Positions 2,834 to 23,921 of a stretch of 24,208 bases of DNA are shown piece by piece. Numbering within the stretch: position 1 is the first letter of the stretch; every line of letters begins with the position of its first letter. Origin of the DNA: a virus (Duplodnaviria > Heunggongvirae > Uroviricota > Caudoviricetes); IMG/VR virus record IMGVR_UViG_2579778956_000001, positions 1-24,208 of that record, one strand, 5' to 3'. A model generated the notes under the pieces. The model saw only the letters and a list, made by a program, of their open reading frames with translations. It had not been told where the DNA came from and ran no database searches. The position numbers and the translations under genes were made by a program.

Positions 2834-3430
2834 TCAATTTGAAACTATTGTACTTCTTATACAAGCAACCACTTCAATATCAGAAAATGCACATTCAAAG
2901 CTATTCTCTGTAGTTGTAATTTTAATCATACCTTTTGGAAGCTTTGTGATTTTTCGAATGGAATAGGTTCCGTCGATGTTGATTAACCAGTGTCCATCAA
3001 GTACTTCAGAAAATTTTTGATCACAAATGTATGTGACAAGCCCATCCTGAATAACAATTGGTGATGAAAGATTTGCAGGAAGAAATGATGAATCGAATAC
3101 ATATGAACCATCTTCAATCATTTTGCCTGCGGTAAGGCGAAACTTGGGAAGCTCTTCTGTGGCTACTGTCAGCGAGCTTTGCTTAAGTCCTTGCCCGGTG
3201 GTTAACCATTTCAGTGAGGTTCCTGTTTCAAGAGCACATTGGATTATCCAGTCTGCAGGAAACGTATCCCGCAAATACCTGTTCGCCAGAGTGCTTTTTG
3301 ATACTTCCAAGTGATCAGCTAAAGCCTGTCGTGTCGTAAAGCCATAAGCTTCGACTAATCGCTCAATCGCAGCCTTACCACCTTTATTGGGATTTATTTT
3401 GATCTCACTTGGGTACTTTGATGTTGACAT
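2834..3430 (-). CDS. cI: 186-type CI immunity repressor (N-terminal HTH, C-terminal oligomerisation domain)
   Basis: 198-aa ORF. N-terminal LVEAYGFTTRQALADHLEVSKSTLANRYLRD...ALETGTSLKWLTTGQG resembles the phage-186 CI HTH domain. Divergent from the apl/cII genes and adjacent to int. No LexA/S24-type Ala-Gly cleavage site or G-D-S-M motif seen. Confidence 0.75.
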   Translation of the reverse strand: MSTSKYPSEIKINPNKGGKAAIERLVEAYGFTTRQALADHLEVSKSTLANRYLRDTFPADWIIQCALETGTSLKWLTTGQGLKQSSLTVATEELPKFRLTAGKMIEDGSYVFDSSFLPANLSSPIVIQDGLVTYICDQKFSEVLDGHWLINIDGTYSIRKITKLPKGMIKITTTENSFECAFSDIEVVACIRSTIVSN

Positions 3431-4497: not shown

Positions 4498-4802
4498 GCC
4501 CCGGTGAACGCCTGAATGGACTTAATCACATAGCGGAATTAAGGGCGAAAGTTTTTGGCCTGAATATTGAGTCAGAGCTTGAGCGGTTTATTAAAGATAT
4601 GCGTGATCCACGGGATATCAATAACGAACAAAATAAACGAGCACTGGCAGCCATATTCTTTATGGCAAAAATTCCGGCTGAACGTCATAGCATCAGCATT
4701 AATGAGCTGACCACTGACGAAAAGCGGGAGTTGATTAAAGCAATGAATCATTTTCGTGCAGTGGTGAGCTTATTTCCCAGACGGCTAACCATGCCGAATT
4801 AA
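4461..4802 (+). CDS. Early-region hypothetical protein
   Basis: 113-aa ORF with SD GGGGGA upstream of ATG 4461. Overlaps the previous ORF in a different frame, as is common in phage early operons. Confidence 0.5.
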   Translation: MAIEGAAATVPLSPGERLNGLNHIAELRAKVFGLNIESELERFIKDMRDPRDINNEQNKRALAAIFFMAKIPAERHSISINELTTDEKRELIKAMNHFRAVVSLFPRRLTMPN

Positions 4803-4869
4803 CCAACCAATGAAATTAATGGCGTAAACCCGCCGGGCATCCCTTTATCTAAATTCAGGAGAATTGATT

Positions 4870-6184: not shown

Positions 6185-8595
6185 GTCATGCCGATATGAA
6201 CAACTGCTGCGGCTTTAACGAAGCTGCCGCATCGTTCTCATGGAACAGCCCGAAAAAGGCCATTAACCCTTATCTGGACCCGGCGGAAGTTGCGCCGGTT
6301 TCTACGCTTTCAAACCTGATCACTCTGTACGCTGCCGATAACGAGCAGGAACAGCTGCGCCGCGAGGCACTGAGTGATCAGGTCTGGGAGCGTTATTTCT
6401 TTAATGAATCCCGTGATCCTGTCCAGCGCGAAATGGAGCAGGATAAGCTCATTAGCCGGGCAAAGCTGGCGCATGAGCAGCAGCGTTTTAATCCAGACAT
6501 GGTCATTCTGGCTGACGTCAACGCCCAGCCTTCCCATATCAGCAAGCCGCTGATGCAACGTATTGAATATTTCAGCAGCCTGGGCAGGCCAAAGGCTTAT
6601 TCCCGCTATTTGCGTGAGACGATTAAGCCATGTCTGGAACGACTGGAGCATGTCCGCGACTGTCAGCTATCCACTTCTTTTCGCTTTATGGCAAGCCATG
6701 AAGGGCTGGATGGCCTGCTTATCCTGCCTGAAATGAGTCAGGATCAGGTGAAGCGCCTGTCTACCCTTGTCGCTGCGCATATGAGCATGTGCCTTGATGC
6801 AGCTTGTGGCGATTTGTATGCCACCGATGATGTTAAGCCAGAAGAAATCCGCAAGACATGGGAAAAGGTGGCAGCAGAAACCCTGCGTCTGGATGTCATC
6901 CCGCCTGCGTTTGAGCAACTCCGTAGGAAAAGAAACCGCCGTAAACCAGTGCCCTATGAACTCATTCCGGGTTCGCTGGCGCGTATGCTGTGCGCCGACT
7001 GGTGGTATCGGAAATTGTGGAAGATGCGTTGCGAATGGCGGGAAGAGCAGTTGCGTGCTGTCTGCCTGGTCAGCAAAAAAGCATCTCCCTATGTCAGCTA
7101 TGAAGCCGTGATGCATAAACGTGAGCAGCGCCGTAAGTCGCTGGAGTTTTTCCGTTCTCATGAACTGGTGAACGAAGACGGCGACACGCTGGATATGGAA
7201 GATGTGGTAAACGCCAGTAGTAGCAACCCGGCGCATCGCCGCAATGAGATGATGGCATGTGTTAAAGGTCTGGAGCTTATCGCGGAAATGCGCGGTGACT
7301 GCGCCGTTTTCTACACCATCACCTGTCCGTCACGTTTCCATTCCACGCTAAATAACGGCAGGCCCAACCCGACCTGGACAAATGCGACGGTAAGACAAAG
7401 CAGTGATTATCTGGTCGGCATGTTTGCTGCATTTCGTAAGGCGATGCACAAAGCCGGATTGCGCTGGTATGGCGTGCGGGTGGCTGAGCCGCATCATGAC
7501 GGTACAGTTCACTGGCACCTGTTGTGTTTTATGCGCAAAAAAGATCGCCGCGCCATTACTGCTTTGTTGCGTAAGTTTGCCATTCGTGAAGACCGCGAGG
7601 AACTGGGTAATAACACAGGACCACGCTTTAAGTCTGAGTTGATTAACCCGCGCAAAGGTACGCCAACAAGCTACATCGCGAAATACATCAGTAAGAACAT
7701 TGACGGGTGTGGTCTGGCTGGCGAGATCAGCAAGGAAACGGGTAAATCCCTGCGTGATAACGCTGAATACGTTAATGCCTGGGCGTCTCTGCATCGTGTT
7801 CAGCAATTCCGCTTCTTTGGCATTCCGGGGCGTCAGGCTTACCGTGAACTGCGATTGCTGGCTGGTCAGGCGGCAAGGCAACAGGGGGACAAAAAAGCAG
7901 GTGCGCCGGTACTGGATAACCCGCGCCTTGATGCCATTCTGGCTGCTGCTGATGCTGGTTGTTTTGCCACCTACATCATGAAGCAGGGTGGCGTACTGGT
8001 TCCCCGCAAATATCACCTCATCAGAACTGCTTATGAAATCAACGAAGAGCCGACCGCCTATGGCGATCACGGCATTCGTATTTATGGCATCTGGTCACCT
8101 ATTGCAGAGGGCAAGATCTGCACTCATGCCGTGAAGTGGAAAATGGTTCGTAAGGCCGTTGACGTTCAGGAGGCGGCAGCCGACCAGGGCGCTTGCGCCC
8201 CTTGGACTCGTGGCAATAACTGTCCCCTTGCTGAAAATTTGTACCAACAAGGGAAAGACAAATCAGCTGATGGAGATACCAGAACGGATATCACCCGCAT
8301 GGATGACAAGGAGTTGCACGATTACCTGCACAGTATGAGCAAAAAAGAGCGCCGGGAACTGGCAGCAAGGTTACGCCTGGTGAAACCGAAACGGCGTAAA
8401 GACTACAAACAACGAATTACAGACCATCAGCGACTGCAGCTCGTGTATGAACTGAAGTCCAGGGGATTTGATGGCAGCGAGAAAGAGGTCGATTTACTGC
8501 TTCGCGGCGGCAGTATTCCGTCAGGAGCAGGCCTGCGTATCTTCTATCGGAACCAGCGTTTGCAGGAAGATGATAAGTGGCGAAACCTGTATTAA
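6181..8595 (+). CDS. A: Replication initiation protein gpA (rolling-circle replication endonuclease, HUH family)
   Basis: 804-aa ORF. HUH-like VHWHLLCF and twin-tyrosine SYIAKYISK motifs. ATGA overlap with the dam stop. Size and position match P2 gene A. Confidence 0.9.
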
Positions 8596-8687
8596 TTACG
8601 CGGGTTAACAATTCGTGCTCTTAATAATACCAGGCATATCAGGGTGATGAGCGTAAAAAAACGTTTTACATCAGTAAGATTATTATA

Positions 8688-8707
8688 TACTGTAAATATA
8701 AACAGTG
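8688..8707. promoter_or_regulatory. LexA (SOS) box overlapping a putative promoter upstream of the small ORF at 8748
   Basis: taCTGTaaatataaACAGtg (CTGT 8690-8693, 8-nt AT-rich spacer, ACAG 8702-8705) matches the consensus CTGT-N8-ACAG. Embedded in an AT-rich region with a TTTACA -35-like hexamer upstream, and about 45 bp before an ORF with a strong SD (AGGAGG 8738-8743). Confidence 0.6.
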
Positions 8708-8747
8708 GTTATGTATACAGTATTGCTTTGGTGTCATAGGAGGAAAG

Positions 8748-8936
8748 ATGCAGGACTATTTTTTGGAGTCTTTGAAGCTCCAGCGCATTGATTTTTTTCT
8801 TAAGCTTGTAGCGGCTAGTGAGTGTAGTGATGAAGAGAAGGGGCTGGCTCTGCAGTGGGTTTCAGAGCTGACTGATGAGTTGATGGCGAAAATTCGTGCC
8901 CATGAATATAACCGTGTAATGGATCTTCCCGGTTAG
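8748..8936 (+). CDS. Small hypothetical protein under putative LexA control (possible antirepressor-like or SOS-induced factor)
   Basis: 62-aa ORF with strong SD AGGAGG and an upstream LexA box. Position corresponds to the 186 tum / P2 tin-old region downstream of gene A. No confident homology recognised. Confidence 0.5.
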   Translation: MQDYFLESLKLQRIDFFLKLVAASECSDEEKGLALQWVSELTDELMAKIRAHEYNRVMDLPG

Positions 8937-8949
8937 CAGCAGGGGCGTT

Positions 8950-8980
8950 GCTGGCGTGAGAACTAGATTCTCGCGTCAGC
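8950..8980 (+). other. Long imperfect palindrome / RNA hairpin downstream of the small ORF
   Basis: GCTGGCGTGAGAA (8950-8962), 5-nt loop, TTCTCGCGTCAGC (8968-8980): a 13-bp stem with two G-U wobbles in RNA. No U-tract follows, so not a canonical terminator. Confidence 0.35.
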
Positions 8981-9106
8981 AAGGTCAACTAAGGATTGAA
9001 ACAGAAAGCCCTTGAAAACAGTAGCAAGTTGCCTATTATCTACGCTGTATTTAATCGATGTCATTGGCTGTAATACCTTAAGTGATATTGAAAGGCGGTG
9101 TGGGGA

Positions 9107-10267
9107 ATGGATCTGGCTAAAGTTGAAGAACGCGTCCGAAGAGTCATAGGGACAATGGAGTCTGCCGAGCTTGATGAATATTTTTGGGGTAAGCGCTCGG
9201 GTTTGGGAGACTCATTACCTCCGTATTATCTCGTTTATTTTCTTTTGGTAGATTTACTGAAATTTAAAAATCGTGGGGTTGATGAGAAGATTTCTTTTTC
9301 TATCCCAGTCCGGATTGATGGGACTGTCGTAATTATAGAACATCGTAAACTTGGTTTAGATATATTTATCAAGAGTGATGATGATATAGAGCAAGCTAAA
9401 ACTGTTTTGAGACATATTTGCGCAGGGGTTAAAGCTGCTACGAAATTTTTTGACTCGCTTGCAGACAATGCAGCAAAGACTTCAAATCTAAATGTTAATA
9501 ACAATGCTAATTCTCTTTATGATAGGTTTTGCTATTTTTTAGAGCTATATAAACAGAAGCTTGATGAAGTTGCTGCTGGCCAAGAGTCTAAACTGGAAGT
9601 TGATAGTGAGTTTAAGTCTGATAATTTTTTCAGCCTGTTACAATCCACTTTTGAACAATCAAATAAGATAATTGAACTCCGAAGAGAGGCTATGTGGTTA
9701 GCAACGTCTGCAATTGAGTCATTTTTCAATTGGACCGAGCATGTTTTCATTCTTATTGCAATCTTGAAGGGTGAGATAAAAAATGGGAATGATGTGGCTG
9801 ATAAAGTTGGGAAAGAATGGGGGGAGAAATTCAAATTAGCCATTGATATTAACTCTTCCAGTCTAAAATCATTCTATGATCGTTTACTTATACTCAGAAA
9901 ACAGGTGCGTAATTTTGTAGCCCATGGCGCCTTCGGTAAGGATGGGCAAGCATTGGAATTTCACTCAAGTGTAGGGGCTGTGCCACTATTGCTGCCTCAT
10001 CGAGAAAATAAAGAACGTTTCAAGTTTGGAAATGGTGTGCATTTTTTGGCACCTGAAGCAATGCAATTAATTAACGATTTTCTTGAAAATTTGTGGCAGG
10101 GAGAACTGTCCCCAGCAAAAATTTATATTGAATCTGGATGTCCTTTAATACTATCTTACGTAACTAATGGAACCTATGCGGAGGCGATGAAATCAGAAAG
10201 GAATATGGACTTATTGGTTAATTACTTAACTCGTGAGATGGATAATGCCGCAAACATGGATTGGTAA
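9107..10267 (+). CDS. Hypothetical protein with HEPN-like R-N-x3-H motif (candidate RNase-type defence/abortive-infection effector)
   Basis: ORF with ATG at 9107 (alternative GTG at 9098; SD-like AAGG at 9092-9095, about 11 nt upstream). AT-rich codon usage. Contains LRKQVRNFVAHG, which fits the HEPN consensus R-[NSH]-x3-H. No other domain recognised. Lies in the gpA-Q hotspot. Confidence 0.65.
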   Translation: MDLAKVEERVRRVIGTMESAELDEYFWGKRSGLGDSLPPYYLVYFLLVDLLKFKNRGVDEKISFSIPVRIDGTVVIIEHRKLGLDIFIKSDDDIEQAKTVLRHICAGVKAATKFFDSLADNAAKTSNLNVNNNANSLYDRFCYFLELYKQKLDEVAAGQESKLEVDSEFKSDNFFSLLQSTFEQSNKIIELRREAMWLATSAIESFFNWTEHVFILIAILKGEIKNGNDVADKVGKEWGEKFKLAIDINSSSLKSFYDRLLILRKQVRNFVAHGAFGKDGQALEFHSSVGAVPLLLPHRENKERFKFGNGVHFLAPEAMQLINDFLENLWQGELSPAKIYIESGCPLILSYVTNGTYAEAMKSERNMDLLVNYLTREMDNAANMDW

Positions 10268-10594
10268 ACTCTAGGTGCGGGTTACAAACACACAAAAAAT
10301 CTTCCTGAGTTAGGTGTTATCCCAACCCAAGGCTGTGTCAGGAAAACTTCATATGGCGCATGAGATCGCATGATAGTATGACGATCGTTTTCGCTGATGC
10401 CAGCCTGAGCTGGCGGGCTGTTGCATATGTCATGCAGGCGCATGAAAACCACTGCATAAAGCGGGTAGGCGTGGCGGGGATACGAGCGCGCGCTTGTGGC
10501 TTTGAATACTCAAATCATGTAATGTTAATTGTCCAAGCTCAGATGTTATTTTAGAATCGTAGTTCACTAGAACTGTGTTAATTGGGAAGTATTC

Positions 10595-11845
10595 ATGGAT
10601 AAACAACGTGCTTCACAAGTTTTTGTGCCTGGCGGTATGCCGAAATTGACTTATGTTGAGCGCTCTGAAGGAGAGGTTCATGGAAAACTGGAGAGTGCTA
10701 AAGATAATTTATGTAAGTTAGTGACTTTAACTGGGCAAACAAAGTCTGGTAAGACTGTAATTACAAGAATGGTATTCCCAGTCATGGACGATGATGTTGT
10801 ATGGATTGACGGTGGGAGTATTACAACTGAAGATGATATTTGGGAGCAGGTATTAGAAAAACTAAATGGCTACCATAGTATTGAAGTTAATTCTGGAGAA
10901 AATAGTGCTATTGCAGTTAGTGGTAAGGTATCGGGGACCGCAAGTGCATTCGTTGTTAAAGGTACAGGTGAGGCTGGTTTAGTTCAGACGGATGGAAAGT
11001 CAAATGGTAATAAAAAATCGCGAACGATATCCGCAAAAAGTTCTGCACTAAAAGTTCTCTCTCAAACCAAGTCTAGTCTTATAATTGATGACTTTCATTA
11101 CCTTGATCGTGACCTACAAGGTAACTTTATTAGAGCGATAAAACCATTAGTTTTTGATGGAGTACCAGTTGTACTGATAGCCATTCCACATCGAAGATAT
11201 GATGCTGTAAAAGTTGAAAAAGAAATTACCGGACGGCTAGAAAATATTTCCATGCCTTCGTGGGAAATGGATGAACTAAAACAAATAGCAAAAGTGGGAT
11301 TTCCTCTGTTAAACATGGAAGTTAGTGATTCAGTAATTGATAAAATTGCCAATGAATCATTGGGAAGCCCTCATTTAATGCAAGAGTTTTGCAAGGCTAT
11401 ATGCTTAGCAAATAATGTTAAAGAAACTTTGCCGAGTAAGTTAGTTATTAATTCTTTAGATGATGATATTTTTAGAAAGGTTGCAGAATCCACTGGGAAA
11501 ATAGTATTTGATAAGTTAGCTAGTGGCCCTAATCAGCGAACTGACAGAATTCCTAGAAAACTGAAAAGTGGTGAGGAAGTAGATATATATAAAGTTGTAT
11601 TATATGCATTGTCACATATGAAACCAGGAATGCAAAGTATTCAGTATGAGGAGTTAAGATCAGCCATACGCGAACTGGTGCAAGATGCTCCTCCACAAGC
11701 TCATGAGGTTACTCGTGTTATAGAAAAAATGGCTAAAATAGCTGCTACGGAAGAAGCTTCAACTCCTGTAATAGATTGGGATAAGGAGGACCGAAAGTTG
11801 CATATTACTGATCCATTTTTTGCTTTTTATCTAAAATGGCGATAA
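10595..11845 (+). CDS. P-loop NTPase (Walker A/B ATPase), candidate defence-system ATPase
   Basis: 416-aa ORF with SD GGGAAG upstream. Walker A LTGQTKSGKT (about residue 45) and Walker B-like hhhhDD (SLIIDDFHYLD). AT-rich. No nuclease (Toprim/HNH) motif recognised, so not an obvious Old/Gabija-type protein. Confidence 0.8.
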   Translation: MDKQRASQVFVPGGMPKLTYVERSEGEVHGKLESAKDNLCKLVTLTGQTKSGKTVITRMVFPVMDDDVVWIDGGSITTEDDIWEQVLEKLNGYHSIEVNSGENSAIAVSGKVSGTASAFVVKGTGEAGLVQTDGKSNGNKKSRTISAKSSALKVLSQTKSSLIIDDFHYLDRDLQGNFIRAIKPLVFDGVPVVLIAIPHRRYDAVKVEKEITGRLENISMPSWEMDELKQIAKVGFPLLNMEVSDSVIDKIANESLGSPHLMQEFCKAICLANNVKETLPSKLVINSLDDDIFRKVAESTGKIVFDKLASGPNQRTDRIPRKLKSGEEVDIYKVVLYALSHMKPGMQSIQYEELRSAIRELVQDAPPQAHEVTRVIEKMAKIAATEEASTPVIDWDKEDRKLHITDPFFAFYLKWR

Positions 11846-11852
11846 AGGTTCT

Positions 11853-11871
11853 GGCTGCCAAACTGGCAGCC
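11853..11871. terminator. GC-rich hairpin between the convergent ATPase gene (+) and portal gene (-); putative bidirectional terminator
   Basis: GGCTGCC (11853-11859), loop AAACT, GGCAGCC (11865-11871). Located in the 32-bp gap between two convergent stop codons. Flanking T/A runs are weak. Confidence 0.45.
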
Positions 11872-11877
11872 TTAAAG

Positions 11878-12915
11878 CTAATTTGAATGAAGTTTATATT
11901 CTTCGAACTGTATCACTTTTTCTTTTAACCAAACATTTAACTCTTCAAATCTTTTTTGCAATGGTATTAGTTCATTGCGTACAAATACATTACTTGCCTT
12001 CTCCACATCCCCAAACCCCCCAACATTATTTGGCATTATCCCCATCATCTGTGGCGGCACGCGGTGTGCCGCCATCATGTCATCGCGACTAACATTTTTG
12101 ATATTCAGAAATTCATCCTTCGCTGCGACTTCTGACAACGGGATAATCTGAAGTCCGTCTTTTTTACCATTAGGCGAGTACATAAACAGATTGCGGAAGT
12201 TACCCGGACCTTTGGCGCTTTTCATTGCGTTGCGGAGGTTGTTCACATCCTCCTGGTTCTGCGCGGCATCGGTCATGTACATGATGAAGCCGGCATGACT
12301 GCCGTTAATGTAATACTTGCGGCGGAACAGCGTGGCGGACTCGTTGAGCAAAGCGGATGGGATGGCAGAAAGATAGCCGGGCAGGCCGTAGATCTCCTGG
12401 TTGATGTCCGGTTCCATCAGATGAAAAATGCTGCCTTTCGTGAACTGATACGGCTGGGTTGTCATACCGTATTGCACAAACCAGTAGGTATCCAGGTCTA
12501 ACCCGCGTCGGGTGTATTTTGCCAGCGCAGGCTCAAGGGCGATAACTTCACCGAATCGGTTCGTGCGTTTCTCCAGGTAGGCGTTACCAAATACCAGATA
12601 GTCCTGTACAAAACGCGAAAAAGCCTGTTGGCTGAGCAGCGGATGAGGGATATAGGTACTGGTCAGAATGTTGCACTTTACTGCAATCGGGGAACTGTGA
12701 TGCACGGCAGCCCGGAAGGTGCGCGCCAGTCCGTCAAAACTTACGGGTGGCTCGTACCAACACTCCATCTGTACGCATTCCACATAGTCCAGCAGTTCGC
12801 GGCGGTCCAGAACAGGAACGGGATCACCGAAGCTGAATGCTTCGGCTGAAGTCTGGCTTTTATGCTGGATCTGTTTCGTCGACGCAGCGCGGTTCTTCTT
12901 ACTCTTTCCCATCAA
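11878..12915 (-). CDS. Q: Portal vertex protein gpQ
   Basis: 345-aa ORF; size and position (upstream of and translationally coupled to the terminase gene) match P2 gene Q. Start overlaps the terminase stop. Confidence 0.85.
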   Translation of the reverse strand: MMGKSKKNRAASTKQIQHKSQTSAEAFSFGDPVPVLDRRELLDYVECVQMECWYEPPVSFDGLARTFRAAVHHSSPIAVKCNILTSTYIPHPLLSQQAFSRFVQDYLVFGNAYLEKRTNRFGEVIALEPALAKYTRRGLDLDTYWFVQYGMTTQPYQFTKGSIFHLMEPDINQEIYGLPGYLSAIPSALLNESATLFRRKYYINGSHAGFIMYMTDAAQNQEDVNNLRNAMKSAKGPGNFRNLFMYSPNGKKDGLQIIPLSEVAAKDEFLNIKNVSRDDMMAAHRVPPQMMGIMPNNVGGFGDVEKASNVFVRNELIPLQKRFEELNVWLKEKVIQFEEYKLHSN

Positions 12916-14820: not shown

Positions 14821-15459
14821 ATGACAGTGAAAGCAAAGCGTTTTCGCATCGGGGTGGAAGGTGCCACCACCGACGGACGCGAAATCCAGCGTGAATGGCT
14901 GGAACAGATGGCAGCCAGCTACAACCCGGCGGTGTATACCGCGCTGATTAACCTTGAGCACATCAAGTCTTATCTGCCGGACAGCACCTTTAACCGCTAC
15001 GGCAAGGTGACGGCGCTGTTTGCTGAAGAAATCAAGGAAGGTCCGCTGGCAGGCAAGATGGCGCTGTATGCCGACGTTGAGCCAACGGAGTCCCTGGTGG
15101 AACTGGTGAAAAAAGGCCAGAAATTATTCACATCTATGGAAGTTAGCCCGAAGTTCGCTGATACGGGCAAAGCCTACCTGGTCGGCCTGGCTGCCACTGA
15201 TGACCCTGCCAGTCTGGGCACTGAAATGCTGACATTCAGCGCCAGTGCAGCCCATAACCCGCTGGCAAACCGCAAGCAGAATCCCGCCAATCTTTTTACC
15301 GCTGCAGAGGAAACGGTGATCGAACTGGAAGAAATCCAGGATGACAAACCGTCCCTGTTTGCCCGTGTCACGGCGCTGTTCACCAAAAAAGAGCAGTCCG
15401 ATGACGCCCGGTTCTCTGATGTGCATAAGGCCGTGGAACAACTGGCAGGGGATCGTTGA
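14821..15459 (+). CDS. O: Capsid scaffolding protein gpO, C-terminally truncated at a deletion junction (likely nonfunctional)
   Basis: 212-aa ORF with an N-terminus of gpO type (FRIGVEGATTDGREI...YLVGLAATDDPASLGTE). P2 gpO is about 284 aa as I recall. The ORF ends in a short non-homologous tail (QLAGDR*) exactly where tail-tube homology begins in another frame. Confidence 0.75.
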   Translation: MTVKAKRFRIGVEGATTDGREIQREWLEQMAASYNPAVYTALINLEHIKSYLPDSTFNRYGKVTALFAEEIKEGPLAGKMALYADVEPTESLVELVKKGQKLFTSMEVSPKFADTGKAYLVGLAATDDPASLGTEMLTFSASAAHNPLANRKQNPANLFTAAEETVIELEEIQDDKPSLFARVTALFTKKEQSDDARFSDVHKAVEQLAGDR

Positions 15460-15904
15460 GTCGCTGACGCTGCCGAAATTTACCCGCAAATATGAGAAGT
15501 ATCGCGGCGGCGGAATGCCGGGTGCGGTGGATGTGGATCTGGGGCTTGATGACAGTGCGCTGGACACAGAATTTTCCATTGGTGGTACTGAATTGCTGCT
15601 GTTTAAACAGATGGGTAAAGCCACGGTGGATGGCATCCAGCTGCGCTTTACCGGCTCTATTCAGCGTGACGATACCGGGGAAGTGCAGGCCGTGGAGCTT
15701 GTCGTGCGTGGACGTCACAAAGAAGTGGATTCCGGCGAGTGGAAGACGGGCGAAAGCAACACCACCAAAGTGACCAGTACCAACAGCTACGCGAAGCTGA
15801 CCATCAATGGTGAGGTGCTCTATGAAGTGGACCTTATCAACATGGTGGAAATTGTGGACGGTGTGGACCTGATGGAAGCGCACCGCAACGCCCTCGGCCT
15901 CTGA
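15446..15904 (+). pseudogene. FII: Tail tube protein FII, 5'-truncated fragment fused downstream of gpO
   Basis: Frame of ORF 15341..15904. Homology to the P2 major tail tube protein begins about at QGIVESLTLPKFTRKYEKYRGGGMPGAVDVDLGLDD and runs to the C-terminus (...EAHRNALGL). About 25 N-terminal residues and any start codon/SD are missing; the upstream part of the ORF overlaps gpO out of frame. Confidence 0.7.
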
Positions 15905-15958
15905 TATATCTGAACGGCGCGGGATACCGCGCCAGAACCCAATTGACAGGACAGCAAA

Positions 15959-16261
15959 ATGAGCGATAAGCAGACTGAAAAGACCATTCAACTGGATACC
16001 CCCATCAAGCGCGGTAAAACAGAAATCACCGAAATTGTGCTGCGTAAACCGCAGTCCGGTGCGCTGCGCGGTACACGCCTGCAGGCCATTATGGATATGG
16101 ATGTGAACGCGATGATGACCGTGATCCCCCGCATCTCCAGTCCGGCACTGACTGCACAGGAAATTGCAGAGATGGACCCGGCAGATCTCACTGCCATGTC
16201 GGTTGAGGTTGTCACTTTTTTGTTGAAGAAGTCGGTGCTTGCCGGTTTACCGACAGCCTGA
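15959..16261 (+). CDS. E: Tail assembly chaperone gpE
   Basis: 100-aa ORF directly upstream of the tape-measure gene, containing a slippery heptamer near its 3' end, as in P2 E/E' (analogous to lambda G/GT). Confidence 0.8.
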   Translation: MSDKQTEKTIQLDTPIKRGKTEITEIVLRKPQSGALRGTRLQAIMDMDVNAMMTVIPRISSPALTAQEIAEMDPADLTAMSVEVVTFLLKKSVLAGLPTA

Positions 16262-16395
16262 CGGTTGACGATCTGGTGGCAGATATCGCCACCATTTTTC
16301 ACTGGCCGCCATCCGTTACTGACGTTATGCCGCTGACCGAAGTGCTGGAATGGCGGTATAAAGCGATTCAGAGAAGCGGGGCCAACGATGAGTGA
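15959..16395 (+). CDS. E': gpE+E' extended chaperone produced by programmed -1 ribosomal frameshift
   Basis: After a -1 slip at T TTT TTG (16216-16222) the reading frame stays open to TGA at 16393-16395, overlapping the T start codon (16388). Translated by hand: ...FVEEVGACRFTDSLTVDDLVADIATIFHWPPSVTDVMPLTEVLEWRYKAIQRSGANDE*. Confidence 0.7.
16216..16222 (+). other. Programmed -1 frameshift slippery heptamer (X XXY YYZ = T TTT TTG)
   Basis: TTTTTTG, in frame as ac[T TTT TTG] in gene E. Conserved arrangement upstream of tape-measure genes. Confidence 0.7.
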
Positions 16396-19300
16396 TAACA
16401 ACCTGCGTCTGCGGGTCATTCTTAATGCGGTTGACAAGCTCACCCGCCCATTTCGATCTGCGCAGGCCAGTTCAAGAGAACTGGCTGCTGCTGTCAAAAA
16501 ATCCCGCGATGCAATAAAGCAGCTTGATCAGGCCGGGAGCAGTCTGGACAGCTTCCGAAAGCTGCAGGCAGAAAATCAGAAATTAGGCGACAGGCTGAAC
16601 TATGCCCGCCAGCGTGCAAATTTGCTCAGTCAGGAACTGGGAGCGATGGGGCCGCCTTCGCAACGTCAGGTTGTTGCTCTGGGCCGTCAACGGCTGGCTG
16701 TTCAGCGCCTGGAAGAACGCCAGAAAAAGCTGCAGCAGCAGACGGCGCTTGTGCGTGCTGAACTGTACCGGGCGGGAATTTCTGCGAAAGACGATGCGGG
16801 AGCAACTGCCCGTTTAGCCCGTGAAACATCACGTTATAACCAGGAACTTTCGAAACAGGAGGCGCGGCTGAAGCGACTGGGGGAAGCTCAGCGCAGGATG
16901 AATGCAGCGCGTGCCAGTTATGCCCGTTCGCTGGAGGTGCGTGATCGTATTGCAGGTGCCGGAGCCACCACCACGGCTGCAGGGCTGGCAATGGGTGCGC
17001 CAGTGATGGCGGCAGTAAAAAGCTATACCAGCATGGAAGATGCCATGAAAGGTGTGGCAAAGCAGGTCAATGGTCTGCGTGACGATAATGGCAACCGCAC
17101 TGCACGTTTTTATGAAATGCAGGATGCCATCAAGGCTGCCAGCGAACAGTTGCCGATGGAAAACGGTGCGGTGGACTTCGCTGCACTGGTTGAAGGTGGT
17201 GCGCGCATGAACGTCGCAAACCCTGACGACAGCTGGGAAGATCAGAAACGTGACCTGCTGGCCTTCGCCAGTACGGCAGCAAAGGCGGCAACAGCCTTTG
17301 AGCTGCCAGCGGATGAACTGTCAGAAAGTCTGGGGAAAATCGCCCAGCTCTACAAAATTCCTACCCGCAATATTGAACAGCTCGGTGATGCGCTGAACTA
17401 TCTGGATGATAACGCCATGTCGAAAGGGGCAGACATCATTGATGTCATGCAACGCCTGGGCGGTGTGGCTGATCGTCTGGATTATCGTAAAGCGGCGGCG
17501 CTGGGTTCCACCTTTCTGACACTGGGCGCTGCGCCAGAGGTTGCAGCCAGTGCAGCAAACGCGATGGTGCGTGAATTGTCCATTGCCACCATGCAAAGCA
17601 AGAGTTTCTTTGAAGGGATGAATCTGCTGAAACTCAATCCTGAAGTGATTGAAAAGCAGATGACGAAGGATGCGATGGGAACTATCCAGCGCGTACTGGA
17701 GAAGGTGAACGCACTGCCGCAGGATAAACGTCTGTCTGCCATGACCATGTTGTTTGGTAAAGAGTTTGGCGATGACGCGGCGAAACTGGCAAACAACCTG
17801 CCGGAACTGCAGCGCCAGCTAAAACTGACAGCGGGCAATGATGCGCTCGGCTCCATGCAGAAAGAATCCGACATTAACAAGGACTCACTTTCTGCGCAGT
17901 GGTTGCTGGTCAAAACCGGAGCGCAGAACACCTTCAGCAGCCTGGGCGAAACGCTGCGCCAGCCGCTGATGGATATTCTGTACACGGTGAAAAGCATCAC
18001 GGGGGCGTTGCGCCGCTGGGTGGAAGCTAACCCGGAACTGACAGGCACACTGATGAAAGTAGCCGCTGTGGTGGCTGCGGTTACCGTAGGCCTCGGAACC
18101 TTAGCGGTGGCGCTGGCTGCAGTGCTGGGGCCGCTGGCAGTGATTCATCTGGGATTCTCTGTGCTGGGTATCAAAACGTTACCTTCCGTTACGGCAGCAG
18201 TAACCCGAACCAGCAGCGCGTTGTCCTGGCTGGCTGGCGCACCACTGGCACTGCTGCGACGCGGGCTTGCTTCATCGGGCAACGCCGCAGGTTTACTTAC
18301 TGCGCCGTTGTCGTCTTTGCGCCGCACGGCATTACTGACGGGAAATGTCCTGAAAACTGTAGCAGGTGCGCCGGTTGCACTTTTGCGGTCTGGATTATCC
18401 GGTTTACGTGCTGTTGCTGTGATGTTTATGAATCCTCTGGCGGTACTGCGCGGTGGACTGGCCGCCGCAGGCACGGTGCTGCGAGTACTGGCATCTGGTC
18501 CACTGGCGATGCTGCGCGTTGCCCTGTATGCCGTATCTGGTCTGTTAGGTGCTCTGCTCAGTCCGATAGGTCTTGTGGTTACTGCACTGGCGGGCGTGGC
18601 GCTGGTTGTCTGGAAATACTGGCAACCCATCACCGCATTTCTTGGTGGCGTGGTGGAAGGATTCAAAGCGGCGGCAGGTCCCGTCAGTGAAGCATTCGAA
18701 CCGCTTAAGCCCGTGTTCCAGTGGATTGGCGACAAAGTACAGGCGCTGTGGGGCTGGTTTACTGATCTGCTGACGCCCGTTAAGTCGACCTCTGCCGAAC
18801 TGCAGAGTGCAGCGGCAATGGGGCGACGATTCGGGGAGGCACTGGCGGAAGGGCTAAATATGGTCATGCATCCGCTGGACTCCCTGAAATCCGGCGTTTC
18901 CTGGTTGCTGGAGAAGCTCGGCATTGTCAGTAAAGAGGCCGCAAAGGCAAAACTGCCGGAAAGCGTGACGCGTCAGCAACCTGCGACGGTGAATGCAGAC
19001 GGTAAAGTGATGATGCCATCGGGTGGTTTTCCATCATGGGGATATGGCTTTGCGGGGATGTATGACAGCGGCGGGTATATCCCGCGCGGGCAGTTTGGCA
19101 TCGTCGGTGAAAACGGGCCGGAAATTGTTAACGGCCCGGCAAATGTGACCAGCCGGAGAAATACAGCTGCACTGGCTGCCGTTGTTGCCGGAATGATGGG
19201 AGTTGCTGCCGCGCCAGCAGAGCTTCCACCGTTGCACCCTTTGGCACTTCCCGCGAAAGGTGGAGAAGCAATTGTGAGTCGCGCAGCCACTGTGCCGCTC

Positions 19301-19465
19301 GTTCAACGGATTGAGGCACCGACGCAGATCATCATTCAGACGCAGCCAGGACAAAGTGCGCAGGATATTGCGCGGGAGGTGGCACGCCAGCTTGATGAAC
19401 GTGAACGCAGGCTGAAGGCAAAAGCCAGGAGTAACTACAGCGATCAGGGGGGATACGACGCATGA
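16388..19465 (+). CDS. T: Tail tape measure protein gpT
   Basis: 1025-aa ORF; coiled-coil-rich N-terminal half, Ala/Gly/Leu-rich hydrophobic repeats in the middle. Follows E/E' and precedes U and D. Confidence 0.9.
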   Translation: MSDNNLRLRVILNAVDKLTRPFRSAQASSRELAAAVKKSRDAIKQLDQAGSSLDSFRKLQAENQKLGDRLNYARQRANLLSQELGAMGPPSQRQVVALGRQRLAVQRLEERQKKLQQQTALVRAELYRAGISAKDDAGATARLARETSRYNQELSKQEARLKRLGEAQRRMNAARASYARSLEVRDRIAGAGATTTAAGLAMGAPVMAAVKSYTSMEDAMKGVAKQVNGLRDDNGNRTARFYEMQDAIKAASEQLPMENGAVDFAALVEGGARMNVANPDDSWEDQKRDLLAFASTAAKAATAFELPADELSESLGKIAQLYKIPTRNIEQLGDALNYLDDNAMSKGADIIDVMQRLGGVADRLDYRKAAALGSTFLTLGAAPEVAASAANAMVRELSIATMQSKSFFEGMNLLKLNPEVIEKQMTKDAMGTIQRVLEKVNALPQDKRLSAMTMLFGKEFGDDAAKLANNLPELQRQLKLTAGNDALGSMQKESDINKDSLSAQWLLVKTGAQNTFSSLGETLRQPLMDILYTVKSITGALRRWVEANPELTGTLMKVAAVVAAVTVGLGTLAVALAAVLGPLAVIHLGFSVLGIKTLPSVTAAVTRTSSALSWLAGAPLALLRRGLASSGNAAGLLTAPLSSLRRTALLTGNVLKTVAGAPVALLRSGLSGLRAVAVMFMNPLAVLRGGLAAAGTVLRVLASGPLAMLRVALYAVSGLLGALLSPIGLVVTALAGVALVVWKYWQPITAFLGGVVEGFKAAAGPVSEAFEPLKPVFQWIGDKVQALWGWFTDLLTPVKSTSAELQSAAAMGRRFGEALAEGLNMVMHPLDSLKSGVSWLLEKLGIVSKEAAKAKLPESVTRQQPATVNADGKVMMPSGGFPSWGYGFAGMYDSGGYIPRGQFGIVGENGPEIVNGPANVTSRRNTAALAAVVAGMMGVAAAPAELPPLHPLALPAKGGEAIVSRAATVPLVQRIEAPTQIIIQTQPGQSAQDIAREVARQLDERERRLKAKARSNYSDQGGYDA

Positions 19466-19947
19466 TGATGGTGCTGGGATTGTACGTGTTTATGCTGCGC
19501 ACCGTTCCGTATCAGGAACTGCAGTATCAACGCAGCTGGCGACATGCGGCTAACAGCCGGGTAAATCGTCGTCCGTCCACGCAGTTTCTGGGACCGGACA
19601 ACGACATGCTGACGCTTTCCGGTGTTCTTATGCCGGAGATAACAGGCGGCAGGCTGTCGTTGCTGGCACTGGAGCAGATGGCAGAACAGGGGAAAGCATG
19701 GCCTCTGATTGAAGGCAGCGGCACGATTTACGGCATGTATGTGATTGAGGGACTGAATCAGACTAAAACGGAGTTTTTCCGCGACGGTATGCCGCGCCGG
19801 ATTGAGTTCACCCTGTCGCTCAAACGGGTGGATGAATCCCTGTCCGATATGTTCGGTGATCTCAGTGCGCAGCTGAATAATCTGCAGGGAACGGCAACAT
19901 CAGCCTTAAGCGATATCAGTAAAACGGTGGGAGGGCTTCTGTCGTGA
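19462..19947 (+). CDS. U: Tail protein gpU
   Basis: 161-aa ORF; ATGA overlap with the T stop. Position between T and D as in P2. Confidence 0.8.
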   Translation: MMMVLGLYVFMLRTVPYQELQYQRSWRHAANSRVNRRPSTQFLGPDNDMLTLSGVLMPEITGGRLSLLALEQMAEQGKAWPLIEGSGTIYGMYVIEGLNQTKTEFFRDGMPRRIEFTLSLKRVDESLSDMFGDLSAQLNNLQGTATSALSDISKTVGGLLS

Positions 19948-21044
19948 ATTTCAGCTCTGAACTGCTTAACAAAGGCAACAAAACTCCGGCATTCAGCATC
20001 AGTATTGAAGGCAGAAATATCACCACTGTGCTGGACAACCGCCTGATGGGGCTGACGCTGACGGATAACCGGGGATTTGAAGCGGACCAGCTTGATCTGG
20101 AGCTGGACGACGCCGATGGAAAAATCGTGCTGCCGCGCCGTGGTGCGGTCATTACGCTGGCGCTGGGCTGGAAGGGGCAGCCGCTTTTCCCGAAAGGGGC
20201 ATTCACGGTGGACGAGATTGAACACACTGGCGCACCGGACCGCCTGACTATCCGGGCGCGAAGTGCTGATTTTCGGGAAACCCTGAATACCCGCCGTGAA
20301 AAATCTTGGCACAAGACCACCGTCGGGGAAGTGGTAAAGGAAATAGCCGCGCGTCACAAGCTGAAGATGGCGCTGGGTAAAGACCTGTCGGATAAGCCCG
20401 TGGAACATATAGACCAGACTAATGAGAGTGACGGCAGTTTTCTGATGCGGCTGGCGCGACAGTACGGTGCCATCGCGTCGGTGAAAAATGGCAATCTGCT
20501 ATTCATCCGGCAGGGGCAGGGCAAAAGCGCCACTGGTAAACCACTGCCAGTGATCACTATCACACGCAAGGACGGCGACAGTCACCGCTTTACCCTGGCA
20601 GATCGCGGAGCCTACACGGGCGTAATTGCCAGCTGGTTGCATACCCGCGAACCTGCGAAGAAAGAAAGCACCACGGTGAAGCGTAAGCGCAGAACTAAGA
20701 AGCAGAAGAAAGAGCCAGAAGCGAAGCAGGGCGATTACCTGGTGGGTACGGATGAAAACGTGCTGGTACTTAATCGCACTTATGCCAACCGGAGCAACGC
20801 CGAACGAGCGGCGAAAATGCAGTGGGAACGCCTGCAACGCGGCGTTGCGTCATTCTCGCTACAACTGGCAGAAGGGCGGGCAGATCTCTACACGGAAATG
20901 CCAGTGAAAGTCAGTGGCTTTAAACAGCCGATAGATGATGCGGAATGGACCATTACGACTCTGACGCATACCGTCAGCCCGGATAACGGTTTTACGACCA
21001 GTCTGGAGCTTGAAGTGAGGATTGATGATTTCGAAATGGAATGA
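19944..21044 (+). CDS. D: Tail protein gpD (late control gene D family)
   Basis: 366-aa ORF; GTG start overlapping the U stop (GTGA). Position between U and ogr as in P2. Confidence 0.85.
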   Translation: MNFSSELLNKGNKTPAFSISIEGRNITTVLDNRLMGLTLTDNRGFEADQLDLELDDADGKIVLPRRGAVITLALGWKGQPLFPKGAFTVDEIEHTGAPDRLTIRARSADFRETLNTRREKSWHKTTVGEVVKEIAARHKLKMALGKDLSDKPVEHIDQTNESDGSFLMRLARQYGAIASVKNGNLLFIRQGQGKSATGKPLPVITITRKDGDSHRFTLADRGAYTGVIASWLHTREPAKKESTTVKRKRRTKKQKKEPEAKQGDYLVGTDENVLVLNRTYANRSNAERAAKMQWERLQRGVASFSLQLAEGRADLYTEMPVKVSGFKQPIDDAEWTITTLTHTVSPDNGFTTSLELEVRIDDFEME

Positions 21045-21353: not shown

Positions 21354-21433
21354 CGCTGCCGCCATTTTGTCGCCATCGTTAAAAAACAGTGCTTCTAACG
21401 TCATGATTTTAAACGGCATAAATTTCAGGCAAC

Positions 21434-21476
21434 AAAAAACCCATCAACCTTGAACCGAAATGGCGGGGTTGATGGG
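21434..21476 (-). terminator. Putative intrinsic terminator downstream of ybjL (minus-strand sense)
   Basis: Inverted repeat CCCATCAACC (21440-21449) / GGTTGATGGG (21467-21476), preceded on the plus strand by AAAAAA (21434-21439), a U-run on the minus strand. The loop is long (17 nt), so confidence is modest. Confidence 0.4.
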
Positions 21477-21588
21477 CTCCACAAAATGGGGACATCAAAG
21501 AAAAGCAGTGGCACTAATTAAGACTGATGCCCTGCGGAAAAGTTCTGCGGTTGTGCAAAAAAATTTCATTTTCAGGGCAACTTCAGTT

Positions 21589-23274
21589 TTATCCTAATCC
21601 TGGCCATACCATGACGATGATTGTCCCTGCCAGCGTCAGCAGGACGTTGGCGATTGCATAGGTGCCCGCATAGCCCAGCGCCGGGATGTTACTGCGAGCT
21701 GTATCACTGATGATCTCCATTGCCGGCGCGCAGGTACGTGCGCCCATCATTGCGCCGAACAACAGTGCGCGGTTCATTCGCAATACATAAGCACCGAACA
21801 AGAAACAGATAACCACGGGCACCAGACTGACAATCAATCCGGCAATCAACATCTGACCGCCAATCGCGCCCAGGCCGTTATTAATACCGCTACCGGCGCT
21901 CAGACCAACGCCTGCCATAAACACCATCAAGCCGAACTCTTTCACCATGCTTAATGCACCTTGCGGAATGTAACCGAAGGTCGGGTGGTTAGCACGCATA
22001 AAGCCCAGCATAATTCCGGCGAATAACAACCCGGCAGCGTTCCCCATGCCGAAACTGAATGTGCTGAACTGGAAGGTGATCATCCCGATCATCAGCCCAA
22101 TAACAAAGAAGGCGCAAAATGCCAGCAGGTCAGTGACCTGGCTGTGAATCGAGATAAAGCCGATGCGATCGGCGATGGTTTTTACGCGACGGGCATCACC
22201 GCTGACTTGTAAAACGTCACCTTTGTTAAGCACGACGTTGTCATCTATCGGCATCTCAATCTGGCTACGAATGACGCGGTTAAGGAAGCAACCGTGATCG
22301 GTCAACTTCAGTTGTGCGAGACGTTTACCTACAGCGTTATGGTTTTTAACGACCACTTCTTCAGTGACGATACGCATGTCGAGAAGGTCACGATCGAAAA
22401 CTTCTTTACCGTTACGGAAGCTGGGATCGAGTCGGGCATGGGCGTCGGGATAGCCTACCAACGCTATTTCATCGCCCATTTGTAGCACGGCATCACCGTC
22501 TGGATTTGCCAGAATCCCGTTACGTCGAATACGTTCAATGTAGCAGCCGGTTTGTCGATAAATACCCAGTTCACGCAGATTTTTGCCGTCGGTCCAGGCC
22601 ACCAGCTCCGGGCCGACGCGATAGGCGCGGATCACCGGTAAATAAACCTTACGGTTGGCATCAGTGTCCAGGCCACGTTCGCGGGCGATTTGCTGGGCGC
22701 TGGTCTGTAAGTCCTGATGCTGCAATTTCGGCAAGTAACGCGCACCAACAATCAAACTCACCAGACCGATTAAATAGGTTAAGGCATACCCGAGGCTCAG
22801 ATTATCCAGTGCCAGTGAGAGCTGCCTGCTTTCCATGCCGGAATGACGCAGTGTATCGCCAGCACCGACCAGAACCGGTGTCGACGTCATAGAGCCTGCT
22901 AACATACCGGCCGTCAGGCCAATATCCCAGCCAAACAGCTTACCTAACCCTAAGGCGATCACCAGCGCACTGCCAACCATCACCAGTGCTAACATTAGGT
23001 AATTTTTCCCATCGCGAAAAAAAATGGAAAAAAAGTTCGGTCCGGCTTCGACCCCGACGCAGAAAATAAACAGCATAAAGCCAAGATTAAGCGCATCGGT
23101 GTTAATGCTGAAATGTTGTTGGCCTAATAACAGCGATACGACTAAAACGCCAATGGAATTACCCAGTTGGATCGAACCAAGTCGTAACTTTCCGAGACAT
23201 AGCCCAAGCGCGAGGACCACAAATAATAACAGAATGTAATTCCCATTTAACAATTCGGCGACGTTTATATTCAC
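21589..23274 (-). CDS. ybjL: Putative AAE-family transport protein YbjL (host chromosomal gene)
   Basis: 561-aa polytopic membrane protein with central TrkA-C-like soluble domains. N-terminus [38 protein letters not shown] matches E. coli YbjL as I recall. Confidence 0.9.
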
Positions 23275-23543
23275 GGAGGCTAACTTCTTGTTTACTAGTA
23301 AGCTGTTGAAAGAAATGGTAATTTACGATAATGTTTTTTACCAGAATTCAGGGCGCAGATTCATTCAGCGCACCTAAACGATAGTAAAGTAACAATATAT
23401 TTTACTAGTGTAATCACATTAGGTATCAACGGCTATATGAATTGCGTTGGCCTATATTAGCATGGAATGCGAAGCGGCTTTATCTTACTGAACGCCACAC
23501 TGGCGAAAAATGTGTTCGATAGACGCAGTGTCAGGAGGAACGA

Positions 23544-23921
23544 GTGAAACATAAACAACGTTGGGCGGGGGCAATCTGCTGTTTTGTCCTCTTCATTGTG
23601 GTGTGCCTTTTTCTGGCGACGCACATGAAAGGCGCTTTTCGGGCTGCCGGGCATCCTGAAATCGGCTTGCTATTTTTCATTCTTCCTGGAGCAGTGGCCA
23701 GCTTCTTTTCACAGCGTAGAGAAGTCCTGAAACCTCTGTTTGGCGCAATGCTGGCGGCACCCTGTTCGATGCTCATTATGCGGCTGTTTTTTTCACCGAC
23801 GCGCTCATTCTGGCAAGAGCTGGCATGGTTACTAAGCGCGGTGTTCTGGTGTGCGCTGGGGGCACTGTGTTTCTTATTTATCAGTAGTTTGTTTAAACCA
23901 CAGCACAGAAAAAATCAGTAA
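23544..23921 (+). CDS. ybjM: Inner membrane protein YbjM (host gene)
   Basis: 125-aa hydrophobic protein; GTG start behind SD AGGAGG (23533-23538). Conserved neighbour of ybjL and grxA. Confidence 0.85.
   Translation: MKHKQRWAGAICCFVLFIVVCLFLATHMKGAFRAAGHPEIGLLFFILPGAVASFFSQRREVLKPLFGAMLAAPCSMLIMRLFFSPTRSFWQELAWLLSAVFWCALGALCFLFISSLFKPQHRKNQ

Follow-up and report, generated by a model that had tools for sequence, protein, structure and literature searches.

Do three adjacent AT-rich genes in the gpA-gpQ interval of a P2-like prophage form one antiviral system, or does their proximity have another origin? The question is raised by IMG/VR virus record IMGVR_UViG_2579778956_000001 (positions 1 to 24,208; 'the window' hereafter is this whole stretch of 24,208 nt). 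A previous sequence-only reading had taken a 62-aa open reading frame (ORF), a HEPN-like protein and a P-loop NTPase, located at 8748-11877 between the replication gene A and the portal gene Q, for a single three-gene cargo cassette. We came to a different picture, which we regard as quite probable in its entirety: the locus would be a mosaic of phage backbone and two single-gene cargo modules exchangeable independently of each other, with functions that can be proposed for each module separately.

The host is Escherichia coli: many strains of this species share, at 100% identity, the flank that contains ybjL, ybjM and grxA. The element is a 186-type, SOS-inducible P2-family prophage that carries int, a PD-Lambda-1 homologue, cI, cII, dam and A; CI (2834-3430) has Phage_CI_repr/CI_C domains, and CII corresponds to CP76. 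The order of elements in the region is gpA, LexA-box promoter, 62-aa ORF, hairpin, 386-aa gene, cos, 416-aa NTPase gene, tQ-like hairpin and portal Q. The three same-strand ORFs read earlier are thus all present (the second, given as 389 aa from GTG 9098, is numbered here as 386 aa from ATG 9107, the start used in homologues and in RefSeq). Also correct were the low GC content of the large genes (0.377 for the 386-aa gene and 0.373 for the NTPase gene, against 0.526 for A and 0.566 for P in the backbone) and the placement of the locus in the known gpA-gpQ hotspot of P2-like prophages (PMC9122126).

The distribution of the two large genes was decisive. In a megablast search of region 8600-11900 against 5,426 complete E. 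coli genomes no genome had at least 80% of the query. The 386-aa gene was found in 10 genomes and the NTPase gene in 7; the two sets were disjoint. Beyond this genome set the picture was the same: none of 84 loci of the 386-aa family had the NTPase gene, none of 10 NTPase loci had the 386-aa gene (hence 0 of 94 other loci with the pair), and the two genes were never together in 24 viral contigs. Where the 386-aa gene was present in the 12 P2-type viral contigs it preceded cos, and where the NTPase gene was present it followed cos; no contig had both. No conserved neighbour was seen for either family.

The large genes are parted by an intergenic stretch of 327 bp. It was first suspected to be a pseudogene or a non-coding RNA (ncRNA); Rfam produced no retron or other ncRNA in it, and it proved to contain cos, which the sequence-only reading had not noticed. 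Judging by its sequence, a GC-rich block of 147 bp (10348-10494, + strand; GC 0.558) is the phage cos site, made of a terminase recognition region and a cohesive end, where terminase would be expected to cut. The predicted 19-nt cohesive end, GGCGTGGCGGGGATACGAG (10468-10486, + strand), was identified by its likeness to published ends of P2-family phages: GGCGAGGCGGGGAAAGCAC in P2, GGCGTGGCGGGGAGACGAG in Smp131, ggcgtggcggggaaagcat in PSP3 and ggcgaggcgggggaacgag in SEN4/5 (PMC3931495, PMC5261728). The number of identical positions is 18 out of 19 for Smp131, 16 for SEN4/5, 15 for PSP3 and 14 for P2 (NC_001895). When the annotated right and left ends of NC_001895 were joined in silico and the junction was aligned locally with the window, positions 10348-10494 were colinear with junction positions 123-268, covering ∼120 nt of the right end, the 19-mer and GCGCGCT.

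Among eight aligned haplotypes the 19-mer is identical in seven (contig L121 differs at the last base); together with the adjacent GCGCGC it is also identical in seven (two bases differ in L121), and rightward divergence of the haplotypes starts directly after it. The cos block is present, unannotated, in 632 of the 5,426 E. coli genomes (83-95% identity) as well as in 75 phage records. It lies between the two cargo positions in 8 loci, in 4 further E. coli prophages and in the 12 P2-type viral contigs. Because cos lies between them, the 386-aa gene should be at the right end of virion DNA and the NTPase gene at the left end. One more reading frame, a 64-aa RefSeq ORF WP_071533703 (10360-10554, + strand; 4629-4823 in locus L002), runs across cos; it has no PADLOC match, is marked as a pseudogene in one genome and has probably been called in error over a conserved packaging site that does not code for protein.

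With cos in place, the gpA-gpQ hotspot falls into two slots; this division is our own reading of the data. The right-end slot (8986-10347, + strand; GC 0.383) extends from the SOS module described below to cos and corresponds to the position of tin and old in P2 and of orf97 in 186. Elsewhere it is occupied by PD-T4-10 A+B, an HNH endonuclease, a protein with HsdR-N domain or small ORFs, or it is empty. The left-end slot (10495-11852, + strand; GC 0.37) runs from cos as far as the tQ-like hairpin; GmrSD/HEC-06, DprA, SieB, a DUF4145 protein, a P-loop NTPase or a three-gene set occupy it in other prophages, and in P2 it is essentially empty, with 167 bp from cosL to Q. Four more unrelated E. 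coli prophages carry cargo on both sides of cos: DprA in one; an HsdR-N-domain protein and a P-loop NTPase in another; HNH and SieB in the third; a 203-aa protein and a DUF4145 protein in the fourth.

Each of the two large genes is seen in these slots either without a companion or with different ones. Downstream of the 386-aa gene there are three other genes in strain L725 and, in a Logan contig, the gene of a GmrSD-type enzyme matching PADLOC HEC-06. The NTPase gene comes after DinI and small ORFs in UMNF18, 64EVA and one contig from the European Nucleotide Archive; in Salmonella prophages it is either alone or placed after PD-T4-10 A+B. We also saw that the left-end slot of L725 (L001, 7036-8914) codes for proteins of 355 aa, 106 aa (STAS-like) and 162 aa with no PADLOC match, a set which is itself another uncharacterised candidate system.

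Homology to haplotypes of the 386-aa type stops at 10493, homology to haplotypes of the NTPase type begins at 10352, and the overlap of 142 bp is nearly the cos block itself. The window is ∼99% identical to HEPN-type haplotypes up to 10493 and to NTPase-type haplotypes from 10495. As the left half follows one type and the right side follows the other, the crossover lies inside cos. The window is a recombinant of independently exchanged cargo. The two genes are shuffled independently and, therefore, do not make a partnered system. Rousset et al. (2022; PMC9122126) described the gpA-gpQ hotspot as adjacent to cos and speculated about exchange driven by cohesive ends.

The sequence-only reading, in which the HEPN protein is the effector and the NTPase is the sensor or motor of a two-component system with the LexA-controlled 62-aa ORF as a third member, had good grounds at first sight: the genes adjoin each other in a known defence hotspot, are AT-rich and share one strand, and pairs of an ATPase and a nuclease recur in defence (OLD, Gabija, PARIS). 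It is now hardly tenable, being already largely refuted by the distribution of the genes, since the pair was found nowhere else. In addition, cos and the rest of the 327-bp intergenic region stand between the genes, each gene has a promoter-like site of its own, and the 62-aa ORF belongs to the backbone. The likeness to OLD, Gabija, PARIS and Septu is superficial, an NTPase beside a nuclease-like protein in the same hotspot; those systems combine an ABC-type ATPase (AAA_15/21) with a TOPRIM or DUF4435 nuclease, whereas here the NTPase is of the AAA_22, Orc1-like kind and the neighbour is of the HEPN kind. PADLOC gave no Old, GajA, AriA or PtuA match in the cargo genes, and the pair is not co-inherited. 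With P2 itself (NC_001895) the locus shares the cos-adjacent gpA-gpQ position and the presence of AT-rich accessory genes; however, tin and old of P2 are directed leftward and are all on the right-end side of cos, while the window has a single rightward gene on either side. Tin and Old have no homology to the cargo of the window. A survey of P2-like prophages, as proposed earlier, did reveal known systems in the same slots; it did not reveal the window's pair as a unit in any other element.

Could two modules that evolved apart nevertheless cooperate in this strain, by complementary phage ranges or synergy, so that their combination was selected? The prophage does stack three defence-type genes (the PD-Lambda-1 homologue at 1137-2813 along with the two cargo genes), and defences in P2 hotspots have been described as being rapidly swapped and mixed (10.64898/2026.02.27.708500). 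Still, the combination is unique among the genomes searched, a recent recombinant arisen by chance fits equally well, and there was no sign of selection for the combination; we consider cooperation very unlikely.

The 62-aa ORF (8748-8936, + strand), counted as cargo in the sequence-only reading, is by sequence comparison a conserved regulatory gene of the backbone, apparently the upstream half of a split tum of Fels-2/PSP3 type and a putative SOS antirepressor. It matches phrog_698 (E-value 5e-36); the protein is 95% identical to counterparts in Fels-2, RE2010 and many Klebsiella P2-like phages and 84% identical in SopEPhi. It directly followed gpA in every P2-type locus examined, and the first ∼330 bases of the megablast query were found in about 1,250 E. 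coli genomes. Phage 186 has a Tum in which an antirepressor and a DinI-like half are fused; tum of Fels-2 and PSP3 is split, and the upstream gene of PSP3 carries the antirepressor activity (Lemire et al. 2011, PMC3121763). Here, too, a LexA-controlled gene comes right after gpA in a prophage with a 186-type CI. The order found in 186 (NC_001317) after A, i.e. p95 with its LexA site, tum, t95a, orf97, t95b and cos, is repeated in the window; in distinction from 186, the ORF is of the split type, the DinI half is missing and the accessory gene codes for the unrelated 386-aa HEPN-like protein. According to its annotation, plasmid-borne expression of orf97 blocks 186 infection, so the right-end slot has a precedent for an exclusion gene.

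The LexA (SOS) box noticed earlier upstream of the 62-aa ORF is well founded: TACTGTAAATATAAACAGTG at 8688-8707 (+ strand) agrees with the consensus at 17 of 20 positions and can be aligned with the LexA site annotated at p95 in phage 186. Its core CTGT-N8-ACAG (8690-8705) is the sole occurrence in the window, while at least one such match appeared in 30 of 100 shuffled sequences. The box is located inside a larger imperfect inverted repeat (8687-8723; arms of 18 nt, 83% complementary) ending in TATACAGTAT; this end may be a second degenerate half-site or an extra operator.

The end of the conserved SOS module is marked by a hairpin at 8948-8982 (+ strand) with 15-nt arms (RNA folding energy -29.9 kcal/mol, z-score -5.8), in the position of the partial terminator t95a of 186. 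It is conserved: in UMNF18 it stands after DinI, and in Salmonella L010, where DinI is absent, directly after the 62-aa ORF. As the hairpin has no U-tract, read-through into the 386-aa gene is plausible; transcription from the SOS promoter may thus reach this gene, as it does orf97 in phage 186.

The right-end cargo, the 386-aa gene (9107-10267, + strand), is a stand-alone gene preceded by a weak promoter-like site (9012-9039, + strand; TTGAAA-16-TATTAT, 10 of 12 positions); the count of promoter-like sites in the region was not above shuffled expectation. The R-N-x3-H motif pointed out in the sequence-only reading is real. It reads R-N-F-V-A-H-G (9908-9928, + strand; residues 268-274) and is a putative HEPN catalytic motif, with R268-N-F-V-A-H273 conforming to the Rx4-6H pattern; R268, N269, H273 and G274 are invariant in 33 homologues with 44-66% identity. 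Invariant as well are SLPPYYLVYF, EHRKFG, SWTEH, FHSxxGAVP and the C-terminal ANMDW. The best Pfam hit, Csx1_HEPN (residues 219-279, E-value 0.04), was below cut-off; the protein had no match in PADLOC or NCBIfam, and none of the 33 homologues passed any curated HEPN profile. The AlphaFold model (predicted local distance difference test score, pLDDT, 88) shows an alpha/beta domain at the N-terminus and a long, helical C-terminal portion. Foldseek found nothing significant for it in the Protein Data Bank (PDB), and a profile search of the family against PDB sequences gave no match. We conclude from the conserved motif that the protein is probably HEPN-like and may act as an RNase; the assignment is graded probable and not proven because Foldseek finds nothing significant. 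The earlier term 'HEPN-like' holds for the motif and fails for curated profiles.

Comparison with known HEPN proteins (AbiA with its C-terminal HEPN, HepN toxins, Csx1/Csm6, LsoA and ApeA) shows a protein that is in no HEPN family of Pfam, NCBIfam or PADLOC and that differs from them in a distinct conserved N-terminal alpha/beta domain and extra invariant motifs; an adjacent MNT-type antitoxin, a fused reverse transcriptase and a CARF domain are all absent. The family is large, with >1,040 members at 90% clustering and 983 clusters at 50% identity, nearly all of them of ∼385 aa and none named. At 40% identity or higher it extends over Proteobacteria, Nitrospira, Acidobacteriota, Dehalococcoidia, Saccharibacteria and Bacteroidota. 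Some longer fusion members (P0244 and others) showed no Pfam domains in their sequences. The claim that the cargo matches no catalogued system is therefore upheld for this protein; for the NTPase it is not (see below).

What surrounds the 386-aa family in other genomes? Among 136 immediate neighbours in 80 diverse genomes there were strong PADLOC matches to several defence genes: MkoA-like, AbiEi, type I and type IIG restriction-modification (R-M), Dsr2, PD-T7-3, HerA and DRT UG17, with GmrSD-like Orf5 and several PDCs in addition. This is a defence-island signature, as seen in a survey that had no matched control. When ORFs within 3.5 kb of the gene were clustered over 80 multi-phylum genomes, no neighbour family appeared in more than 8 loci. 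A toxin-antitoxin pair of HEPN-MNT type was considered and rejected, with no conserved MNT or other antitoxin gene adjacent; in a search for small antitoxin ORFs down to 25 aa the recurrent ones only overlapped the conserved ends of the gene itself, and no tandem-repeat (ToxI-like) RNA was found beside it. The 'Putative HEPN' (pFR103) tested by Rousset et al. is unrelated to the 386-aa protein.

A distant member of the family in Plastoroseomonas (L004/L016, 7197-12325) is directly beside a queuosine cluster (Vut_1, QueC, QueG, QueF, TGT and QueA), and the vicinity of another one (L005), on a conjugative element, contains a QueC-like gene, a HipBA pair and a PIN-domain gene. This proximity may be a coincidence or may reflect a link to defence islands of 7-deazaguanine type.

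The left-end cargo is the gene of a 416-aa AAA+ NTPase (10595-11845, + strand), a single-gene module that resembles Orc1/Cdc6 and is a distant member of PDC-S59. A weak promoter-like site (10529-10557, + strand; TTGTCC-17-TAGAAT, 9 of 12 positions) lies upstream, inside the segment that always travels with the gene. The Walker motifs reported earlier are genuine and invariant in the family: Walker A, GQTKSGKT (10733-10756), with G47-x-T-K-S-G-K-T54, and Walker B, LIIDDFHY (11078-11101), with I164-D-D166 and an R-R motif after it. Pfam suggested AAA_22, TniB and AAA_16, all below cut-off. The AlphaFold2 model (pLDDT 75) has a Ser/Gly-rich insert predicted to be disordered at residues 96-144, between Walker A and Walker B. 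Foldseek retrieved Orc1/Cdc6 (2qby_A, E-value 4.4e-9; 1fnn_A, 3.9e-8), CED-4 (1e-6), RFC, RuvB and TnsC, while a profile search of the family against PDB sequences yielded only marginal matches to RuvB and zeta toxin. According to the model, the protein is an AAA+ NTPase with base, lid and winged-helix fold, so the class proposed from sequence was right. It shares the AAA+ base, the lid, the C-terminal winged helix and Walker A/B with Orc1/Cdc6 and CED-4-type STAND proteins (Foldseek E-values 4e-9 to 1e-6); it differs from them by an identity as low as 11-15% and by the disordered insert of 50 residues, and origin binding is not implied. Avs and bNACHT-type STAND proteins have sensor repeats and an effector domain, neither of which is in the NTPase.

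The NTPase was already catalogued as a defence candidate. It matches PADLOC PDC-S59 at full length (E-value 1.2e-31; residues 7-415 against 6-402 of the 428 positions of the model), and so do all 30 family members compared (E-values 1e-31 to 3e-37). Because the bit score is low for a full-length match, the NTPase is best placed in a sister clade of the PDC-S59 model. It has in common with PDC-S59 the full-length match to the hidden Markov model and the occurrence as a single gene; its location between cos and Q of P2 is outside the PDC-S59 definition. What defines a PDC is its embedding in BREX, DISARM or type I R-M, mobility genes having been removed beforehand (10.1101/2024.01.29.577857). 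The NTPase also had weak matches to PADLOC LmuA (E-value 4e-4) and NCBIfam DS8 (0.04), which were discarded as local noise from the P-loop or from a short segment. A literature search for PDC-S59 and for both RefSeq accessions in main texts found nothing. The family has >1,670 members, with at least 53% identity from E. coli to Nostoc; the NTPase gene is the lone hotspot gene in Salmonella L010 and a lone chromosomal gene in Vibrio cholerae and Pseudomonas, adjoining a Tn5-type transposase in Vibrio.

The hairpin described earlier at the end of the cassette is also real. It is situated at 11853-11871 between the convergent stops of the NTPase gene and Q, with an 8-bp perfect stem, GGCTGCCA/TGGCAGCC, folding energies of -16.2 and -15.3 kcal/mol on the two strands (z-scores -2.8 and -3.2) and no clear U-tract on either strand. 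This is the position of tQ in P2, annotated there 5 nt from the Q stop. In the P2-like viral contigs L119 (87-131) and L120 (2444-2488) nothing but the final 15 codons of the NTPase gene, at 93% identity, is left beside portal Q; this remnant looks like a scar of cassette replacement in the left-end slot.

One or both genes may, of course, have a role other than defence: the NTPase could take part in DNA transactions of mobile elements (TniB/TnsC-like or ORC-like replication, targeting or maintenance), and the HEPN protein could be a toxin under its own control, an addiction module, or a stress RNase with a stabilising effect on the prophage. The NTPase has weak similarity to TniB and AAA_22, a Foldseek match to TnsC, a transposase neighbour in Vibrio and no effector domain; retention of both genes by a defective prophage would fit any host-beneficial or selfish role, and the defence role of both is deduced from sequence and context. 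On the other hand, sister prophages hold validated defences (PD-T4-10, HEC-06/GmrSD and SieB) in these very slots, defence genes abound next to members of the HEPN family, and PDC-S59 was defined with mobility genes set aside. Beside the HEPN gene no conserved antitoxin candidate (ORFs of at least 25 aa) and no repeat RNA was present. On balance, a non-defence role is unlikely, and both large genes are plausible single-gene defence candidates in a known hotspot.

In the mosaic that we favour, each cargo gene would be a stand-alone gene of inter-phage competition or defence, and recombination within or at cos, the sole conserved sequence between the slots, would re-assort left and right cargo. 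The 386-aa protein would most likely be a stand-alone RNase of abortive-infection (Abi) type: the N-terminal alpha/beta domain could keep the C-terminal HEPN domain (R268/N269/H273) inactive until infection, whereupon cleavage of RNA would halt phage growth. The NTPase would most likely be a separate ATP-driven switch of Orc1/Cdc6/STAND type, whose C-terminal winged-helix region may bind DNA or a phage protein; it could then block replication or packaging of a competitor without an enzymatic effector domain of its own. The mechanism of the NTPase is a conjecture and the weakest step of this explanation.

Several points weigh against this explanation. The defence function of both genes has only the status of a candidate, and in the supplementary locus table of Rousset et al. 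(2022; PMC9122126) both RefSeq accessions appear only as 'hypothetical'. The PDC-S59 score of ∼108-125 bits is low for an alignment of 400 residues; moreover, the PDCs are 145 candidates that, according to their source paper, are experimentally untested (Payne et al. 2024 preprint, 10.1101/2024.01.29.577857). The lack of a recognisable effector domain makes any mechanism for the NTPase conjectural, the defence-island signature lacks its control, and independent assortment leaves room for functional synergy in this particular strain. Finally, BLASTP produced no alignment of the 62-aa protein with 186 Tum; the assignment as a putative antirepressor rests, therefore, on position, regulation and identity to the Fels-2 ORF, i.e. 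it leans on the 95% identity and on a personal communication cited in the literature.

One could go further and speculate, tentatively, about a more specific scenario, which is possible, if somewhat doubtful. The 386-aa proteins would be a single-gene Abi family, present in Proteobacteria, Nitrospirota, Acidobacteriota, Chloroflexota, the candidate phyla radiation (CPR) and Bacteroidota, in which an N-terminal sensor domain of a kind not described before gates a divergent HEPN RNase. In 186-type prophages the gene would belong to the SOS operon, with cos as the pivot of exchange. DNA damage or prophage induction, besides infection, could then switch on the 386-aa gene, and exchange mediated by cohesive ends between co-resident P2-like elements would re-assort the cargo at cos.

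The prophage is defective. A large internal deletion has removed late genes, with capsid, lysis and most tail genes missing (14821-21044); gpO ends prematurely at 212 aa, and almost directly after it come T (tape-measure-like, 16388-19465), the U position and gpD. The gpU position holds a 161-aa ORF, assigned by position alone. In a relative with the same chromosomal site, strain 2014C-3097, there are ∼13 kb extra between the HEPN gene and ybjL. The PD-Lambda-1 homologue (1137-2813, - strand; 558 aa, GC 0.375), with Pfam domains DUF4041 and T5orf172 and a PADLOC E-value of 7e-120, lies between the integrase gene and cI, in a hotspot different from gpA-gpQ. Rfam, applied to the whole window and, at a permissive threshold, to 8550-11950, returned RybB alone, outside the region of interest: this small RNA is at 21431-21509 (- strand; 105 bits), and host genes ybjL and ybjM occupy 21589-23921, beyond the prophage. 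The right boundary of the prophage is between 21044 and 21431, beside rybB.

AT-rich genes that lie side by side in a prophage hotspot need not belong to one system, and a tempting mis-annotation is corrected here; in mining of gpA-gpQ loci for multi-gene systems the loci should be split at cos. The NTPase, already catalogued as a PADLOC candidate, represents a P2-borne clade of PDC-S59. The 386-aa HEPN-like family, uncatalogued and very widespread, is the more novel of the two candidates; if validated, it would extend the Abi-type RNases by a new sensor-effector design.

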